Shown here piece after piece: positions 12,943 to 27,307 of a stretch of DNA of 64,000 nucleotides (the first letter of the stretch is position 1; every line of letters starts with the position of its first letter). Position numbers and translations under genes: made by a program. The notes under the pieces were generated by a model. The model did no database searches, was not told where the DNA came from, and was given only the letters and a program-made list of their open reading frames with translations. Source of the stretch: Acidobacteriota bacterium (lineage in GTDB: Bacteria > Acidobacteriota > UBA6911 > RPQK01 > JAJDTT01); contig CBDCJH010000002.1 in the NCBI GenBank assembly GCA_965217775.1, positions 4,640,001 through 4,704,000 of the forward strand, given 5' to 3'.

Positions 12943-13623
12943 ATAGCTGGTGGGCCGTCCCTTCGTGGGGAGGTCGATGCGGGGAATGCGGGAGTCGGGG
13001 CAAGAGGGGGAGTGAGGAGGTTCCCGGACGACCGGTTATTGCTATAGATAGACAAATTTGGCGCTGTTTTTACCATCCATAGTCGAAATCCCGATTCCGC
13101 ATGGATTGAGCCAAGATATTTCACGGTCCAGCCACCTGCTCGCCCATGCTTTTGTGCCCCATTGTGAGCTTGGGAGTTCGGCGGTTATGAAACCGCCGCT
13201 CCTCGACCGAATATTCCGTTCGTCGTGTTCGACGCAGGTTTGGCGGTCGCCGCAAGTGAATCAGGCGCCACGGTCCACGGAGCGCGTCCTGGAAGCTGAG
13301 AGAAAAGGTAGCGGCGCCTGGAAGAGTGAAGAAAGGAGCGTAGATTACGCGTAGCGCGCACCACAACCGAAAAGGTCAATACTCATTCCGGTCGCCGGTA
13401 GACATCCCGGCGATGGGCGACGCGGACGACCAGCACGACGAGTACACCTTCGCGCACTTCGTAAATCACGCGGTAATCGCCCACGCGAAGCCGGCGCAGG
13501 CCCCGCATATCGCCCTTGAGCGCATCGCCGAGGAATGGATTCTCTGCATGAATAGCGGTATGGCGTCGGCGGAAAACGGGGGTGGAGGAGAAGAATGGGC
13601 AATTGGAAATCGCCCTTCCGGCG

Positions 13624-20978: not shown

Positions 20979-21199
20979 GCAAGAACTCTTTCGCTACGTT
21001 TGCAGTCGATCCCGTACGGTTCCTAACCACGACCCCGACGGAACCAGTCGATGCTCACATCGCTCGCTTCCCGGCCGCGGTCAGCCTTTGCCCTCAACGA
21101 TCTCCTTTCACAAGTTGGAGTGACGGCAAGTGAGATGCGAAGCATCGTGAAAATAGGAACTAGAGCAGTTTACACAAGTAAAGTGAGATTTCAACCTGG

Positions 21200-21308
21200 G
21201 AGGCTGTCCGAGAACTCGAAAAATCACGATCCAGAAAAAACTATCTCCTTATAAATCAATAACTTAAATCTGTCGATTTGGATGAAAATCGCATTCTCGG
21301 ACAGCCTC
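21200..21308. mobile_element. MITE family D (109 bp)
   Basis: Perfect 15-bp TIR GAGGCTGTCCGAGAA / TTCTCGGACAGCCTC; TSD CTGG. Confidence 0.8.
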
Positions 21309-21485
21309 CTGGAATGGTGATATTTGGGTGATTTCTTGCACCAATCCGGGATCCTTGCGACACAGAGGGCTCGGCTTCAGCTCCGGCTCGGGCAGGGACG
21401 AGATGAGCGCCCGGCTGGCCGCCGTAGGGGCCGTCCCTAACCCCAAGTCACCCGCAGAAGCTGGTTCGGGCGTTTTAGGGGCGTG

Positions 21486-22166
21486 GGCGATTTCCAATCG
21501 CTCACGCTCACTCCGGAGGTCGGCGGCTGGAAACCGCCGCTCCTTTTCGGCAGGAGAGGCGATTTCCAGTCGCCCACTCCCCGCATTCCCACACACCGCT
21601 TTCGCTCGCGCTCTCTCCGGAGGTCGGCGGCTGGAAACCGCCGCTCCTTTTCGGCAGGAGGGGCGATTTCCAGTCGCCCACTCCCCGCATTCCCACACAC
21701 CGCTATCGCTCACGCTCACTCCGGAAGTCGGCGGCTGGAAACCGCCGCTCCTTTTCGGCAGGAGGGGCGATTTCCAGTCGCCCACTCCCCGCATTCCCAC
21801 ACACCCGCTATCGCTCGCGCTCACTCCGGAGGTCGGCGGCTGGAAACCGCCGCTCCTTTTCGGCAGGAGGGGCGATTTCCAGTCGCCCACTCCCCGCATT
21901 CCCACACATCGCTATCGCTGGCGCTCTCTCCGGAAGTCGGCGGCTGGAAACCGCCGCTCCTTTTCGGCAGGAGGGGCGATTTCCAGTCGCCCACTCCCCG
22001 CATTCCCACACACTGCTATCGCTCGCGCTCATTCCGGAGGTCGGCGGCTGGAAACCGCCGCTCCTTTTCGGCAGGAGGGGCGATTTCCAGTCGCCCACTC
22101 CCCGCATTCCCACACATCGCTATCGCTGGCGCTCATTCCGGAGGTCGGCGGCTGGAAACCGCCGCT
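21486..22166. repeat. Tandem REP/BIME-like array, ~104-bp unit, about 6.5 copies
   Basis: Units start near 21557, 21661, 21765, 21870, 21974 and 22078. Each has the hairpins GGGCGATTTCCAGTCGCCC and GGCGGCTGGAAACCGCC; no unique spacers. Confidence 0.92.
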
Positions 22167-22179
22167 TGTCTGTTTAAAT

Positions 22180-22340
22180 AGGCCCGTCCGGGTCGCTCAT
22201 GAGCGACCCGGACGGCGGTGGCTGGACCGTACCGCCGCGGACCATTACGAACCGTTTGGGAGTGAGGTCGGCCACCGTCTTTCCCGATGTCCTGAATGGA
22301 TACAAGGGCATCAAGGCCCGAATGACAAGCACAGGAGACA
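22180..22340 (+). ncRNA. Predicted bridge RNA of IS110 #2
   Basis: 5' hairpin CCGTCCGGGTCGCTC-AT-GAGCGACCCGGACGG; LTG ACCGCCGC 22231-22238, RTG GGAG 22259-22262, LDG ATGGATAC 22296-22303, RDG GACAAG 22324-22329. Confidence 0.85.
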
Positions 22341-22346
22341 GGAAAG

Positions 22347-23294
22347 ATGAATCAGCATACCGTAGGCATCGACATCTCGAAAGCGCACCTGGACGCGCAC
22401 CGGCTGGCCGACGGCCATTCCGCCCAGTTCGACAATGACCCGGCCGGCTTCCGGGCGCTGATCGATTGGATCGGAACTCCGGTCGAGTGCGTCGTCTACG
22501 AGGCCACCGGCCCCTACCACCGGGACCTCGAGGAAGCGCTGTCCAAAGCGAAGCTGCCGCTGGCGAAGGTGAACCCCTGGCAGGCGCGGCGCTTCGCCGA
22601 GGCGACCGGGAGCCGTGCCAAGACCGACGCCGTAGACGCTCGGAAACTGGCCCAGTTGGCCGCCAGCCTGGATCCGCGCCGGACCCCGGCACCGTCGAAA
22701 ACGCAACGCCGGCTCCAGGAAATGCAGATGGTCCGGGACGGGCTGATGCGCCAGCGCACGGCCACGCTCAACCGCCGCCAACAGCTCCGCGAACCCGTGT
22801 TGAAACAGCAGCACCAGACCCAGATCAACATGTTCGAGCGCCACGTGCGCACCATCGACCGCAAAATGCAGACGCTGATCGCGGCCGACGAGGCGCGGGC
22901 CCGCAAGCTGGAGATCCTCACCTCCATCCCGGGGATCGCGGCCACCACCGCCGCCGGTCTGCTGGCCGAGATGCCCGAGCTGGGCGCCCTCAGCGGCAAG
23001 GCCGCCGCCAGTCTGGCCGGGTTGGCCGCCGTTCCGCGCGAGTCGGGGGCTTGGCAGGGCCGGGCGTTCATCCGGGGCGGACGGGCGCGGGCGCGACGGC
23101 TCCTGTACATGCCGGCGGTGTCCGCCCTGCGCTGGAACCCCGACTTGGCCGAGGTGTACCGGAGGCTGAGAGAGCGCGGCAAGCCCGGCAAGGTGGCCCT
23201 CGTCGCCGTCATGCGCAAGCTCATCGTCCTGGCCAACACCCTCGTCCGGCAGGACCGCACCTGGTTGCCCGTCGCACCCCGCGTGGTCTCCTGA
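22347..23294 (+). CDS. IS110 family recombinase
   Basis: GIDIS, YEATG, KTDAVD, IPGI and RESG motifs. Confidence 0.95.
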   Translation: MNQHTVGIDISKAHLDAHRLADGHSAQFDNDPAGFRALIDWIGTPVECVVYEATGPYHRDLEEALSKAKLPLAKVNPWQARRFAEATGSRAKTDAVDARKLAQLAASLDPRRTPAPSKTQRRLQEMQMVRDGLMRQRTATLNRRQQLREPVLKQQHQTQINMFERHVRTIDRKMQTLIAADEARARKLEILTSIPGIAATTAAGLLAEMPELGALSGKAAASLAGLAAVPRESGAWQGRAFIRGGRARARRLLYMPAVSALRWNPDLAEVYRRLRERGKPGKVALVAVMRKLIVLANTLVRQDRTWLPVAPRVVS

Positions 23295-23713
23295 GCCCAC
23301 GGAGCGACCCGAGGAGGAGAGGGGACGTGTCGGGTCCCCCAAGGAACGTCTGTAGAACTTCCGGTCAGGCCTGGCCGGAAGCTTGCTTACGGCCATGAAA
23401 GCTCTTCACGCCCTGGGGAGCGTCGGGTCACCCGAAGGGGCGCAGCGAAGCGGAGGAGCCGGAGGCTTGACCCGGCGCTCCCCAGGGCGTATCCGGACCT
23501 CCCGGAGGACTGACGTCGACGATCTCAGGCCCCTCGATCCAGTTGATCGGTCCACTCATCGCCCCCTCCACGGCACCCGGCGGATCCAGTCCGATCTCCG
23601 CCTCACCTCCGGCGGAAGAACCCTCCTCCTAACCCTGTGCCCTTTGGACCGGACAGATCACGTACTAACGACACGGGATGGAAAGGGTGCACGACAAAAA
23701 AGTGACGACCGGG

Positions 23714-25040
23714 TCAAGCTGCGGCTTTGGAATTGGCTCGCCATTCCCAGAAGTCCTCAAAACGTCCACTGAGTCGAACGCACCGAAGGGCCATGATCGA
23801 ATTAGCTCCCCGCACACTCCAATGCATCCCGGAACGTTTGAGTCGTGCCCCGATGGCGTTTTTGCATCCGGCTTCCACCACCCCGGTTGAGGTGCAGAGT
23901 CCCTGGGCCTCGAACTGCGCGTAACGCACGATGTCGATGCTCTTGGAAATAGGTGCAGGCCGCTTTTCCCTCCTCGTGGTGAGAGGCCTCGGTGGCGAGG
24001 ACCGACAGGAGGGTCTCGATCCGACCGGCATCGAGTTCCGCGCAACGTTGTTGGGCCCACTCCTGCCCGGACTGGCGGTCGGCATACAGACTCTTCGAGA
24101 GCGTATGGAGTCGCTCTTTGGCGTGAAAACGATCGACAATCTGCACCGCCTCCGGGAAGAGCTCGCCGGAGAGATTCCAGATCCACCTCGCTCCGTCTCC
24201 CAGGACGACTTGCCGTGGCGCTTGCCCAAAACGGCGTCGTTGGCTTTCGCGCTCGACTCGCTCTCGCGAACTCCGAAAGCTGGGGGTCCGTATCCAGGGT
24301 GGCGGCGCTCTCGATGGCCGCGGTGTAGGTGACCGAGTGCGGGTCGCGCTGGGGCCGACCCTGGGCGTCCCGTCGCTCGGCACTCCAGACCGTACAGAGC
24401 TTGGCTTCGCGGGTTCGGGCCGACCCATCAGGCTGTTTGCCCGCCCGCCCCTGCACCTCGGTCGATCGCATCGGCACCCCAGTGCCGTCCAGGCCCAGAT
24501 AGAGCGTCGAGGGCAAAGGGAGCCCCGAGTCGGGCTCCCGGGTCTGGCGTTCATAGCCCGCGACTTGCTCTCCCAGAGCCTGGGCCGACCGCTGCACCTG
24601 TTTGGTGCCCACGTCCACTCCGGCCAACTCCTCCAACAACTGACTGCTTTCCTGAAAGCTGACCATGGAGGCGACCGCCCCCACCATCCGCATCAGGGCG
24701 GGAGACAAGGAACTCCCCTCCAGTCCCAGCGCTCGATCTCGGGGACAGAAGCCATGGCTGCAATCCCCGCAGTGATAGTAGGCGCGCGCCAATCGCATCG
24801 GTCCCAGCACGGTGACGAACTCTTTGGTCCGCCGACCCGCGTAGCGCGCGCTCCCTCCACAGGAGCAGTTGTGGCGGGGAGTGGCGTCGGAATGATCCTG
24901 GTTCAGATGCGTTTCCACCGTCCGGGCCGCCAGCTCGAGGACTTGACGCCGGAGGGCTGTCTCCAGCGCTTCAAAGTCCAGGGCGGCGGCGGCCGCGGGT
25001 CCCATCAGGGTCCGGACTTCTCGCTGGATTTCTTGGGCCA
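23714..25040 (-). pseudogene. ISKra4 transposase with apparent frameshifts near 24265 and 23935
   Basis: LDGTGVP, LGDGARWIW..IVDRFHA and GVVEAGCK..RLKRSGMHW lie in three different ORFs. Confidence 0.8.
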
Positions 25041-25430
25041 GCGTTTTTTGGAGCCCTTTTTTTGGCCCTTCCGGGCCGGAGAGGCGTCCAGCTTAGCCTG
25101 GCAAATCTGCTCGCTGACCTCCACCAACTCCTTCACCAAGCTCCGCAATCGGCGATACTCGCCGATCTGCTCTCGAGTCCGTTGGACGGCCGGCCCCGGG
25201 GGAATGATCTTGGTCACGGTCTTGCCCGCCACGCGACGGGTCAAGGAGAAACTGGGCCCGTGGCCCCGGTCGCCGGGCTGGGCGCAGTGACAGTTGGGCT
25301 TGCCGCAACGGCGGTAACGGGCCACCAGGGACCCGGGCCGGAGATCACCGAGTTCGAGCAAGGCCTGCAGCAACTGCTGGCGACGTCGTTGAAGCTGGGG
25401 CTGAGGGGAAACGCCTGGAGACATGGGCAC
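25005..25430 (-). CDS. ISKra4 upstream ORF (DUF6788-like)
   Basis: RPGSL..RRCGKPNCHC..HGP motif; A7G3 slippery run near 25055. Confidence 0.8.
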   Translation of the reverse strand: MPMSPGVSPQPQLQRRRQQLLQALLELGDLRPGSLVARYRRCGKPNCHCAQPGDRGHGPSFSLTRRVAGKTVTKIIPPGPAVQRTREQIGEYRRLRSLVKELVEVSEQICQAKLDASPARKGQKKGSKKRWPKKSSEKSGP

Positions 25431-25596
25431 ACTCCTCTCTGACAGTTATAGCAACTGACAGACAATCTAAGCCCAATCTCTGACGTTGTCTGGCCTCCAC
25501 CACCAGCATCACTTTCGTGTCGTGCACCCGGATGGAAACACCGATTAGCACCCACCACTTGCAACATGGATACTCCTCTCCTTTCGTTGATTTTGC

Positions 25597-26268
25597 TTGG
25601 TGAACGTTTGGAACTTTGTGTCATGCGACTCAAAGAATCGGCGGCTGGGAAACCGCACCCGCTTCTATCTCGACCCTTATAGGGCCGTTGATGTTCACCA
25701 CAACCGCCTACCCCACTGGCAGCAAGGTGACAAATTCGTCTTCGTGACTTGGCGGCTGGGAGATTCGCTTCCCCAAGCCAAACTGGATCAGTGGCGGGAG
25801 GAGCAGAAGCTCTGGTTGAAACACCATCCTCGACCTTGGAATTCTCAGACAGCGCGACGCTACCGCAATCGTTTCTCCGGACGGATCAACGACTGGTTGG
25901 ATCAAGGCAACGGGTCGTGCGTCCTCAGGGATCCGGCGTTGGCAAAGATCGTGGCTGACTCCTTGCGGCATTTCGATGGCCGGCGTTACGAACTGGAATC
26001 CTTCATCGTGATGCCCAACCACGTCCATGTGCTGTTTCGCCCTCTTGGCTCTAATCGACTCGGGGATATCTTGAGGTCTTGGAAGCTATTTACGGCTCGC
26101 CAGATCAACCAGAAGACCGGAAGGTCGGCCAAGCTCTGGCAGAAAGATTATTGGGACCGGTTGATCAGGCACGAGACACACTTTTTGCAGTGTTTGGAAT
26201 ACATCCGCGAGAACCCGGCGAAAGCCGGGTTGAGAGAAGGGGAGTTTGTATTGTTCGAGAAGGTTTAG
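25597..26268 (+). CDS. REP-associated tyrosine transposase (RAYT, Y1 HUH)
   Basis: RLPHW, FVTWRL, VMPNHVHVL (HUH), WQKDYWDRLIR, YIRENP; flanked by REPs; start uncertain. Confidence 0.9.
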   Translation: MVNVWNFVSCDSKNRRLGNRTRFYLDPYRAVDVHHNRLPHWQQGDKFVFVTWRLGDSLPQAKLDQWREEQKLWLKHHPRPWNSQTARRYRNRFSGRINDWLDQGNGSCVLRDPALAKIVADSLRHFDGRRYELESFIVMPNHVHVLFRPLGSNRLGDILRSWKLFTARQINQKTGRSAKLWQKDYWDRLIRHETHFLQCLEYIRENPAKAGLREGEFVLFEKV

Positions 26269-26345
26269 GAGGGGCGATTTCCAGTCGCCCACTCCCCCCA
26301 TTCCCACACACCGCTATCGCTCGCGCTCACTCCGGAGGTCGAGCG
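26269..26345. repeat. Partial REP array unit downstream of RAYT
   Basis: Same sequence as the 104-bp unit. Confidence 0.85.
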
Positions 26346-27307
26346 TCCCTCCCAGTGTAGTTCGTGAAATGGTCCTTCATCTGGGAGCGGGTGAGATGAC
26401 CCGTGTGGATCAGAATGCGGTAGAGAAGGAGGGCCGACTGGCCGGGGTTCAGGGAGAAGTTCAGGGGCGGGGCGCCTTTTTCGAAGTCCGCCCGGCCGAA
26501 AGGGTTGGCGGCGAAGAGGCCGTAGGCGCGGGCGTGCCAGTAGGTGGGATAACGGACGCTGCGAGGATGGTTCATGATGGCCAGGGTCAGATCCTCGCCC
26601 TCGACCGATCCGCGTAAGGCCATCCACGGAGATGGTTTGCCCCAGACGTGCTCCGCCCGCTCGAGACCTTCGGCGTTGAGGTAGCGGCCGGTGCGGTCCT
26701 CGCGCAGATCGGAGGCGACGCGGATGGCCAGCAAACCCTCCTCGATGTCGCCGAAGGTGACCGGCTCCTCTTGGGCGGTGAGCGTGATCTTCAGGTCGAG
26801 GGTTCGCCATTCGGGTCCGGTTTGGATGGTCACCCGGGAGGTTTGCTTAAGCAGGACCTTGCCGGTGGGGGCGACCCAGTTGGCGGTGGCGCCCAGGATG
26901 CCTTGCTGCCCTCCTTCCATTCGTGTGAAGCCAGTGTGCCGGATCCTTCCGCTTCCCGGGTTGTCCCCCCGGGGAGGGAACTTGGACCAGAAGTCCACGC
27001 CGTTGACGTTGCGGTAGGTGAGGAAGACGCCTTCGTGTTGCCAATGGTCGGTCTGCTCCCCGGGGATGCCGAACTCCATGGGGAATCCGCGGGTGATCCG
27101 GTGCCCCCCAGGACTGAGCAGGGGATGGAAGATGGGTTTGTGCAGGCCGATACCGTAGTGGTAAGAGGCGAAGAGCGCCTCGCCGGCATAGATGTCCACC
27201 CGCGCCGCGTCGGTCTTGATGATGCGGATCCGGTGAGGAGATTCGGCTGAGGCGGCGGACGGAACGAGCCAGGCGAGCAGCAACGCGGCAGACGTTAAGC
27301 GCCTCAT
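26327..27307 (-). CDS. DUF6807/PmoA-family exported protein
   Basis: KPIFHPL, TRGFP, DHWQHEG, WHARAYGLFAANPF. Confidence 0.85.
   Translation of the reverse strand: MRRLTSAALLLAWLVPSAASAESPHRIRIIKTDAARVDIYAGEALFASYHYGIGLHKPIFHPLLSPGGHRITRGFPMEFGIPGEQTDHWQHEGVFLTYRNVNGVDFWSKFPPRGDNPGSGRIRHTGFTRMEGGQQGILGATANWVAPTGKVLLKQTSRVTIQTGPEWRTLDLKITLTAQEEPVTFGDIEEGLLAIRVASDLREDRTGRYLNAEGLERAEHVWGKPSPWMALRGSVEGEDLTLAIMNHPRSVRYPTYWHARAYGLFAANPFGRADFEKGAPPLNFSLNPGQSALLLYRILIHTGHLTRSQMKDHFTNYTGRDARPPE

Follow-up and report, generated by a model that had tools for sequence, protein, structure and literature searches.

A probable bridge-RNA-guided IS110 element, inserted at a REP-like hairpin and carrying a nested insertion sequence, in a sponge-associated Acidobacteriota genome

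Insertion sequences (ISs) of the IS110 group include elements that move by means of a recombinase and a bridge RNA, as described for IS621 of Escherichia coli. The left guides of this RNA pair with the DNA's bottom strand and the right guides with the top strand, each guide including the core (PMC11208160), and handshake positions are described by Hiraizumi et al. 2024. The catalytic residues of the IS621 recombinase are D11, E60, D102, D105 and S241 (PMC11208158). Its junction promoter is split between the two ends of the element (PMC11208160; PMC13626964). Expanded IS110 elements have already been described as well (bioRxiv 10.64898/2026.08.14.744561). Here we analyse a window of 64,000 nucleotides (the whole stretch of DNA under study, to which all coordinates refer) from a sponge-associated Acidobacteriota genome (assembly GCA_965217775.1, contig CBDCJH010000002.1, positions 4,640,001 to 4,704,000). 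Positions 22167-25574 on the plus strand of this window are very probably occupied by an IS110-group IS that moves by the IS621-type bridge-RNA mechanism, into which a second IS has inserted and which has since transposed again as a composite. Its target is a hairpin resembling repetitive extragenic palindromes (REPs).

The composite element measures 3,408 bp, with boundaries that follow from the four copies found in a search of its own genome. The window copy and L002 are ~3.41 kb long each, L005 and L006 ~1.55 kb each. At the left junction ACCGCCG (22158-22164) is followed by the core CT (22165-22166) and by TGTC (22167-22170), the first bases of the element. At the right junction ATGGATA (25566-25572) precedes CT (25573-25574) and the right target CC (25575-25576), and CT followed by CC is found on the right in 4/4 own-genome copies. 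The same core CT stands at both junctions in all four copies and in the relatives, and the element has neither terminal inverted repeats nor a long target duplication. A congener retains the empty site with a single CT, ...ACCGCCG-CT-CC..., which reads more widely ...GGAAACCGCCG-CT-CCTTTCGTTGATTTTGCTT and lies upstream of the orthologue of a gene that adjoins the element in the window. The coordinates of junctions, guides and promoter boxes given in the original prediction proved correct base for base.

The recombinase gene (22347-23294, plus strand) had been called intact, and it is an undamaged frame of 315 aa. Its product scores 79.9 bits with PF01548 (cut-off 29) and 67.6 bits with PF02371 (cut-off 21.3) in Pfam, and 205.5 bits with the NCBIfam model NF033542, 'IS110 family RNA-guided transposase' (cut-off 140). 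Over residues 3-299, alignment to solved structures gave ISCro4 (9t56) with E 1.4e-34 and 123 bits, and IS621 (8wt6) with E 8.8e-31 and 110.5 bits. D9, E52, D94, D97 and S233 align with the five catalytic residues of IS621 in the order listed above, the serine lying in RESG here and in YESG around S241.

Upstream of the gene, the 180-nt left end holds four segments that match the target and the donor in the order and strand sense of the IS621 rules, left guides reading as the top strand and right guides as its reverse complement. The left target guide ACCGCCGC (22231-22238) corresponds to seven left-target nucleotides together with the first core base, and the next letter, G at 22239, mismatches the core T. 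GGAG (22259-22262), the right target guide, is the reverse complement of CT+CC; it is followed by U-G at the handshake position (22263-22264), of which U can pair with donor A7. The left donor guide ATGGATAC (22296-22303) covers 7 nt of the right end and the first core base; it is followed at 22304 by A, not by the U needed for pairing with the core's second base. The right donor guide GACAAG (22324-22329) is the reverse complement of CT+TGTC, and C-A follows at the handshake position (22330-22331), with C able to pair with target G7. In 200,000 dinucleotide-preserving shuffles of the left end, ACCGCCGC occurred 1,233 times, ATGGATAC 404 times, GACAAG 13,307 times and GGAG 159,826 times; all four together occurred in 0/200,000. 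The claim of a complete four-guide RNA thus stands as to the presence of all four guides in order and on the proper strand. It needs correction in that the two left guides match at 8/9 only, since G or A, not U, faces the second letter of the core, and in that GGAG alone is uninformative, because most shuffles contain it; the other three guides are informative.

The left end is also predicted to fold stably (single-sequence fold z = -6.5). RNAalifold, applied to 14 representative left ends, predicts a 5' hairpin, a target loop closed by a long outer stem, and a donor loop with its own outer stem and an inner hairpin; all four guides fall in unpaired parts. The 5' stem-loop (22184-22215, plus strand) is a perfect palindrome, and 6/8 pairs of its helix 1 show compensatory changes. 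The target-binding loop with its outer stem spans 22214-22279, where 22214-22228 pairs with 22266-22279 according to RNAalifold and pair counts. The donor-binding loop (22290-22336) has the outer stem UCCUG/CAGGA and the inner hairpin GGGC (22306-22309)/GCCC (22316-22319), which is 100% paired with 2/4 pairs compensatory. Over the whole structure 94% of cells are paired, versus 32-53% with slid partners, and changes on both sides compensate in 12/30 pairs versus 1-3 when slid; 0/500 shuffles reached the observed values. An inner stem of the target loop, sought by eye, differs between alleles and was not predicted by RNAalifold, and it was left out. A basal stem of the donor loop was not counted either, as it overlaps three pairs of the target-loop stem and alignment gaps misplace its 3' strand. 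An Rfam search of 21000-26500 with E up to 1 returned chance-level microRNA matches only, whether or not Rfam holds a bridge-RNA family. As a separate observation, GUCUUUCC (22277-22284) can pair with GGAAAGAU (22341-22348), which would cover the region of ribosome binding and the start codon's first two bases. The counterparts in Candidatus Foliamicus are GUCUUUUC and GAAAAGAU, with one compensatory change. Because its 5' strand overlaps three pairs of the target-loop stem, this pairing and that stem would be alternatives.

The copies in the own genome sit where their guides would direct them. Guide ACCGCCGC is found at ACCGCCGCT in 2/2 copies (window copy and L002). Guide GTCGCCGC is found at GCCGCCGCT in L005 and at GTCGCCGCT in L006, sites of a second REP subfamily with the loop CAAGAAA. 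The original prediction had made the location of other copies its check, and both guides agree with it. A scan of one genome per species added 65 loci to eight own-genome elements, giving 73 elements; protein identity is 85-94% in other Acidobacteriota metagenome-assembled genomes (MAGs), 64-67% in Candidatus Foliamicus and 41-44% in an alphaproteobacterial MAG. Guide and left flank were readable in 65/73. The 7-nt guide agrees with the flank at 7/7 positions in 49 of these, at 6/7 in 6, at 5/7 in 8 and at 4/7 or fewer in 2. Seven guide alleles could be distinguished, which match their own modal flank at 6.4/7 positions on average versus 3.07/7 for the flanks of other alleles. Guide allele and flank are the same in 3/3 cases for ACCGACG, 5/5 for GCCCTCG and 27/35 for TTCGTGT. 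In many relatives the right target guide has 5-8 contiguous matching bases (8 in L045, 7 in L008-L011), and three variants show the right donor guide changing together with the left-end sequence (GACAAG/CTTGTC, TACAAG/CTTGTA and GATAAG/CTTATC). The co-variation of guide and flank in relatives independently supports the four-guide reading. The IS621-type mechanism proposed for this locus therefore has the support of the family models, of guide sense and order, and of this co-variation.

Sequence identity alone cannot separate RNA pairing from repeated protein-binding sites, and the left-end matches might accordingly be subterminal DNA repeats bound by the transposase rather than guides. We hold this to be highly improbable. 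The right guides are reverse complements and the left guides direct copies, as in the IS621 RNA-DNA structures that have been described; the guides occupy internal loops in a structure for which compensatory changes speak; where the target differs the target-side guide differs too, with the protein remaining ~99% identical; and the protein belongs to a family shown to use bridge RNA.

The target itself is the REP hairpin CGGCGG-CTGGAAA-CCGCCG (22146-22164, plus strand), whose 3' arm together with the preceding A forms the left target ACCGCCG. The genome contains 503 strand-wise matches to GGCGxy-loop-y'x'CGCC (~250 loci) with two main loop types, and 136 of these hairpin matches carry a GCTCC tail; the repeat is thus a short imperfect palindrome present in many copies, as is expected of a REP. 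Perfect ACCGCCGCTCC sites number 152 in the genome, with ~12 expected by an estimate from base composition, and there are 60 GTCGCCGCTCC sites. Within the window, nine perfect ACCGCCGCTCC sites lie on the plus strand and four on the minus strand. The unoccupied plus-strand sites are at 13192, 30201 and 33152 and in six array units (21533, 21637, 21741, 21846, 21950 and 22054), which bears out the open targets foreseen near 13190, 30200, 33150 and in the array. REP targeting, as predicted, is borne out too, since the hairpin whose 3' arm serves as left target recurs a few hundred times and a gene resembling REP-associated tyrosine transposases (RAYTs) adjoins; that IS621 also targets REPs, likewise part of the prediction, is stated in Durrant et al. 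2024.

It could be asked whether the shape of the REP hairpin mainly sets the choice of site, the guide match being secondary. The left target of most alleles is indeed the 3' arm of a hairpin (the REPs here and in Ca. Foliamicus, and CATAC-loop-GTATG in a second family), and the ISPpu10 preprint reports that a stem-loop at the target adds specificity. We nevertheless consider hairpin-led choice quite unlikely, as guide and flank co-vary base by base, including at ACCGACG sites that are not REPs, and as the alphaproteobacterial relatives have the core inside the loop of a nearby inverted repeat and not after a 3' arm. Any contribution of the hairpin would add to guide pairing, not replace it.

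The length of the composite is explained by a second IS in its right end. This nested ISKra4-like IS (23685-25529, minus strand) is 1,845 bp long, is bounded by 12-bp terminal inverted repeats GGGTGCACGACA and is flanked by the 9-bp target duplication GGATGGAAA at 23676-23684 and 25530-25538. It carries a DUF6788 open reading frame (ORF; 25005-25430) upstream of a transposase, whose frame is broken in the window copy and is intact, with 427 aa, in L002 and L003; the window copy is 2 bp shorter than these two. The transposase shows no Pfam domain and scores 101 bits with the curated ISKra4 model NF033572, below the cut-off of 205, and we therefore call the IS ISKra4-like only. Without it and one copy of its target-site duplication the IS110 element comes to ~1,554 bp, which we take as the ancestral length given the 1,845-bp insertion. 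The window copy and L002 carry the nested IS at the same place and with the same 9-bp duplication, and their outer flanks differ; most simply, then, the second IS inserted once and the composite transposed afterwards. Segmental duplication was rejected as the origin of the two composites, as the flanks differ right outside the element. The same holds for a nested IS that struck one site twice, as a solo copy has a different duplication: the IS also occurs alone in the own genome (L003, L004 and L007), with AGTTCAGGA as the duplication of L003. The idea that the 3.4-kb span is one IS110 element with a long right end was dropped too, since a separate IS is present. Contigs from three public runs join 23675 to 25530, and the un-nested form therefore also exists elsewhere.

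The ancestral right end, made up of an inner portion (23295-23684, plus strand) and a terminal portion (25539-25574) that bears the -35-like TTGCAA (25559-25564), the left donor ATGGATA and the core CT, is ~426 bp long, which is unusual for the IS110 group. The relatives in Ca. Foliamicus measure 1,279 bp, leaving ~160 bp for the right end by arithmetic from element length. Parts of the long right end (23358-23674; query 1259-1331 and 1406-1575) match other places in the genome at 71-84% identity, and the extra length may itself derive from a small repeat.

A candidate promoter would be formed only upon circularisation. Its left-end half is the -10-like TTAAAT (22174-22179, plus strand), preceded by TGT. 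In the circle, TTGCAA (25559-25564) would be followed by 10 nt of the right end and 7 nt of the left end, a spacer of 17 nt, and then by TTAAAT. The boxes match at 4/6 and 4/6 positions and keep their place in the relatives, where the -35-like box is TTGCAA or TTGACA and the -10-like box TTAAAT, TTGAAT or TGTAAT; in Ca. Foliamicus the -35 box is the consensus TTGACA and the spacer one base longer. By position and by analogy with IS621 a junction promoter is plausible. Its geometry is as originally claimed and its position is conserved; its strength had been overstated, as the -10 box is without the usual A.

The stretch is found in sponge metagenome and metatranscriptome runs from 8 studies. 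Contigs from RNA libraries of sponge metagenomes cover the left end, the ORF and the right end at 90-99% likeness, which is a weak hint only of expression, and no contig of the three RNA runs covers 23865-24781. Run X18 showed a depth of 1,798.7 over 22162-22292 versus 293 in the next bin; we draw no conclusion on RNA level from it, because parts cannot be ranked by contig depths and DNA may be present in the run. The check for expression and circle junctions used four runs, all as Logan contigs. Two backward joints in these contigs, from 25576 to 21937 and 21938 with 3-4 letters between, were rejected as circles, since they are other copies with another REP behind them. That the window copy is active is thus an inference.

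A number of points weigh against the IS621-type mechanism, or against its working in this copy. The second core base finds no partner in the left target and left donor guides (G/A instead of U), and IS621 is described as strongly preferring full pairing of the core. The right target guide of the window copy matches 4 bases only, which chance gives in 80% of shuffles. Two of the 7 alleles are imperfect, ATGTATG being found at CGGTATG (4 copies) and GTCCTCG at GCCC(T/C)CG (2 copies). The left end, with 180 bp, is shorter than the ancestral right end of ~426 bp (1,554 = 180 + 948 + 426); a left end longer than the right one is described as typical of the group, not as defining it (Durrant et al. 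2024). The -10-like boxes have no A at position 2 and would for that reason fail the second-hexamer criterion of the sigma-70 tool, which by its criteria found no promoter in the integrated left end, the only part scanned. The RNA-library contigs may derive from DNA carry-over or from relatives, and no Logan contig of the four runs joins 25574 back to 22167. Finally, there are 152 ACCGCCGCTCC and 60 GTCGCCGCTCC sites but two copies per allele, and activity is therefore low or past.

Some of these points would suit an element that is a genuine IS110 with a bridge RNA and of which the window copy is an immobile relic, disabled by its 1.85-kb insert, by the unpaired second core base or by a weak junction promoter. 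Two copies of the allele against 152 perfect sites, a -10 box lacking its usual A, the absence of a promoter in the integrated state and of a circle junction in four runs all fit a relic, as do the changes gathered by the window copy, among them N2 and M126 in place of the K and L of the other three copies. Yet the ORF, the residues aligned to the catalytic residues of IS621, the four guides, both ends and the last 36 bp of the right end with the -35 box are intact, and the composite has moved at least once after the nested insertion. Moreover, the same core-position G is carried by 15 copies in one related genome, and this base therefore does not prevent spread. On balance we judge it unlikely, with some weight left to it, that the window copy is a relic.

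Under the IS621-type mechanism, and by homology with IS621, the element would excise as a circle. The joining of its ends would bring the -35-like box of the right end beside the -10-like box of the left end, the resulting RNA together with four recombinase subunits would pair the circle junction with a free REP, and strands would be exchanged at CT. The ISKra4-like IS, for its part, inserted once in the right end, after which transposition of the composite produced the two composite copies in different REPs.

Comparison of the copies further suggests how such elements may change their target. Between the window copy and L005, 13/34 target-loop positions differ versus 17/1,520 elsewhere (1.1%; Fisher p = 1.9e-15). 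In the opposite sense, L005 and L040, which is from another species, differ at 2/34 target-loop positions versus 18% elsewhere, and the GTCGCCG cassette is kept in L040 including the non-guide spacer. The mosaic loop spans 22231-22264, and similar contrasts are found inside a related genome (L032 versus L037 and L031 versus L042). In a tree of the backbone with the loop removed, copies group by genome, and loops of the GTCGCCG type occur on either side of the sole 100/100 split. The tree by itself could be explained by a root on the GTCGCCG side; a loop difference of 38% on a backbone difference of 1.1% could not. The target-binding loop of this IS110 may therefore be an exchangeable cassette, retargeting in nature being brought about by the exchange of whole loops between lineages, or by homogenisation of the backbone around old loops, and not by point mutation; in our estimate this is an evenly balanced proposition. 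The invariant stems that flank the target loop would act as recombination arms. If so, one IS110 lineage can hold several REP subfamilies as landing sites. That closely related ISs choose different sites is described in the seekRNA paper. Broad literature searches retrieved no report of loop swapping or of this host, which is weak evidence of absence. Close relatives may be listed in supplementary tables of Durrant et al. 2024 and of preprints from 2026.

As to the surroundings of the element, a tandem array of 104-bp units in 6.4 copies (21497-22166, plus strand; TRF), with two REP-like hairpins per unit, ends exactly at the insertion point. Just downstream of the element, and outside it, lies the RAYT-like gene (25597-26268, plus strand), flanked on both sides by REP-like hairpins. 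It scores 29.9 bits with Pfam Y1_Tnp (cut-off 23) and 78.3 bits with NCBIfam REP_Tyr_transpos, just below the cut-off of 80; the latter model has no match above cut-off in the whole genome. This is the gene whose orthologue follows the empty site in the congener. Compared with that site the right flank in the window has five extra letters: 25575-25590 reads CCTCTCCTTTCG here and CCTTTCG there (L097), CTCCT occurring twice if the core is counted, and CCTCTCC follows the IS in L035 of another genome. In a related genome another copy of the IS110 lies just upstream of a paralogue of the RAYT-like gene (L099 in G006, compared with L100 in G007), which makes at least two insertions beside genes of this kind. 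The REP hairpin and the T-rich start of the IS (22146-22176) together score as an intrinsic-terminator-like site. With each such insertion a terminator-like site would come to lie immediately upstream of the bridge RNA and might protect the element against read-through.

Other IS110 lineages were also observed. A gene at 613-1086 in the window, with a 438-aa open frame, belongs to another lineage of the family (PF01548, 125.6 bits) and has identical-scoring copies elsewhere in the genome; it is presumably the 'IS110 #1' of the original prediction. A second lineage in the own genome (L008-L011) has 66-67% DNA identity, the same donor ends and the target CGGTATG-CT-CCCTCAT, which is matched by its 7-base right target guide; 4/4 copies lie inside a repeat bounded by inverted repeats, and a 72-bp tandem duplication of the left-end start gives L009 and L011 two CT-TGTC sites. 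In the alphaproteobacterial MAG, ~35 copies of a 1.19-kb relative (L055-L093) all lie in the same repeated sequence at TTCGTGT-CT-CACGGCAG. Their left target guide matches in full at 9/9, their right target guide over 6 bases, and their number is very high for the family.

The element adds a compact bridge recombinase (315 aa) from Acidobacteriota, a phylum not represented among the characterised systems considered here, and it could be tried as an orthologue for editing. Seven natural target-guide alleles matched to their sites provide ready-made evidence on which positions are read. Moreover, a single genome illustrates a possible way for such elements to change from one REP subfamily to another, and shows that a second IS can travel with them.

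Among described systems, IS621 (Durrant et al. 2024, Hiraizumi et al. 2024) offers the most points of comparison. From what these papers describe, both elements have a two-domain recombinase with the aligned catalytic residues conserved, a bridge RNA in the left end with a 5' hairpin, a target loop and a donor loop, and a 7+2+2 target geometry in which the core is CT and the right target guide has 4 bases. REPs are the insertion sites of both; the promoter of IS621 is divided between its ends, and the candidate promoter here would be so too. The differences are a distant sequence (110.5 bits), a recombinase of 315 aa here versus 326 in IS621, left guides that leave the second core base unpaired, a right end of ~426 bp that is longer than the left, the nested IS carried here, and the host, a sponge-associated Acidobacteriota genome. 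The best match among solved structures is ISCro4 (9t56), which differs in guide sequences and host. We take ISCro4 to be the same as IS622, which has served to edit the human genome.

ISPpu9 and ISPpu10 of Pseudomonas putida are, as described, IS110-family elements too, inserted in REPs or in a conserved intergenic stem-loop. For ISPpu10 the hairpin is placed just 5' of the paired bases of the target, and here too a hairpin, by its 3' arm, provides the left target; a role of the hairpin here is a guess. The expanded cargo-bearing IS110 loci (bioRxiv 10.64898/2026.08.14.744561) are reported to have grown beyond ~1.5 kb and still to move as a unit, as this composite has. They differ in that the cargo here is an IS with a broken transposase in the right end, and no adaptive genes are carried. 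The element is thus a further well-supported member of the IS110 bridge-recombinase family, and its mechanism is the one already known, not a new one.

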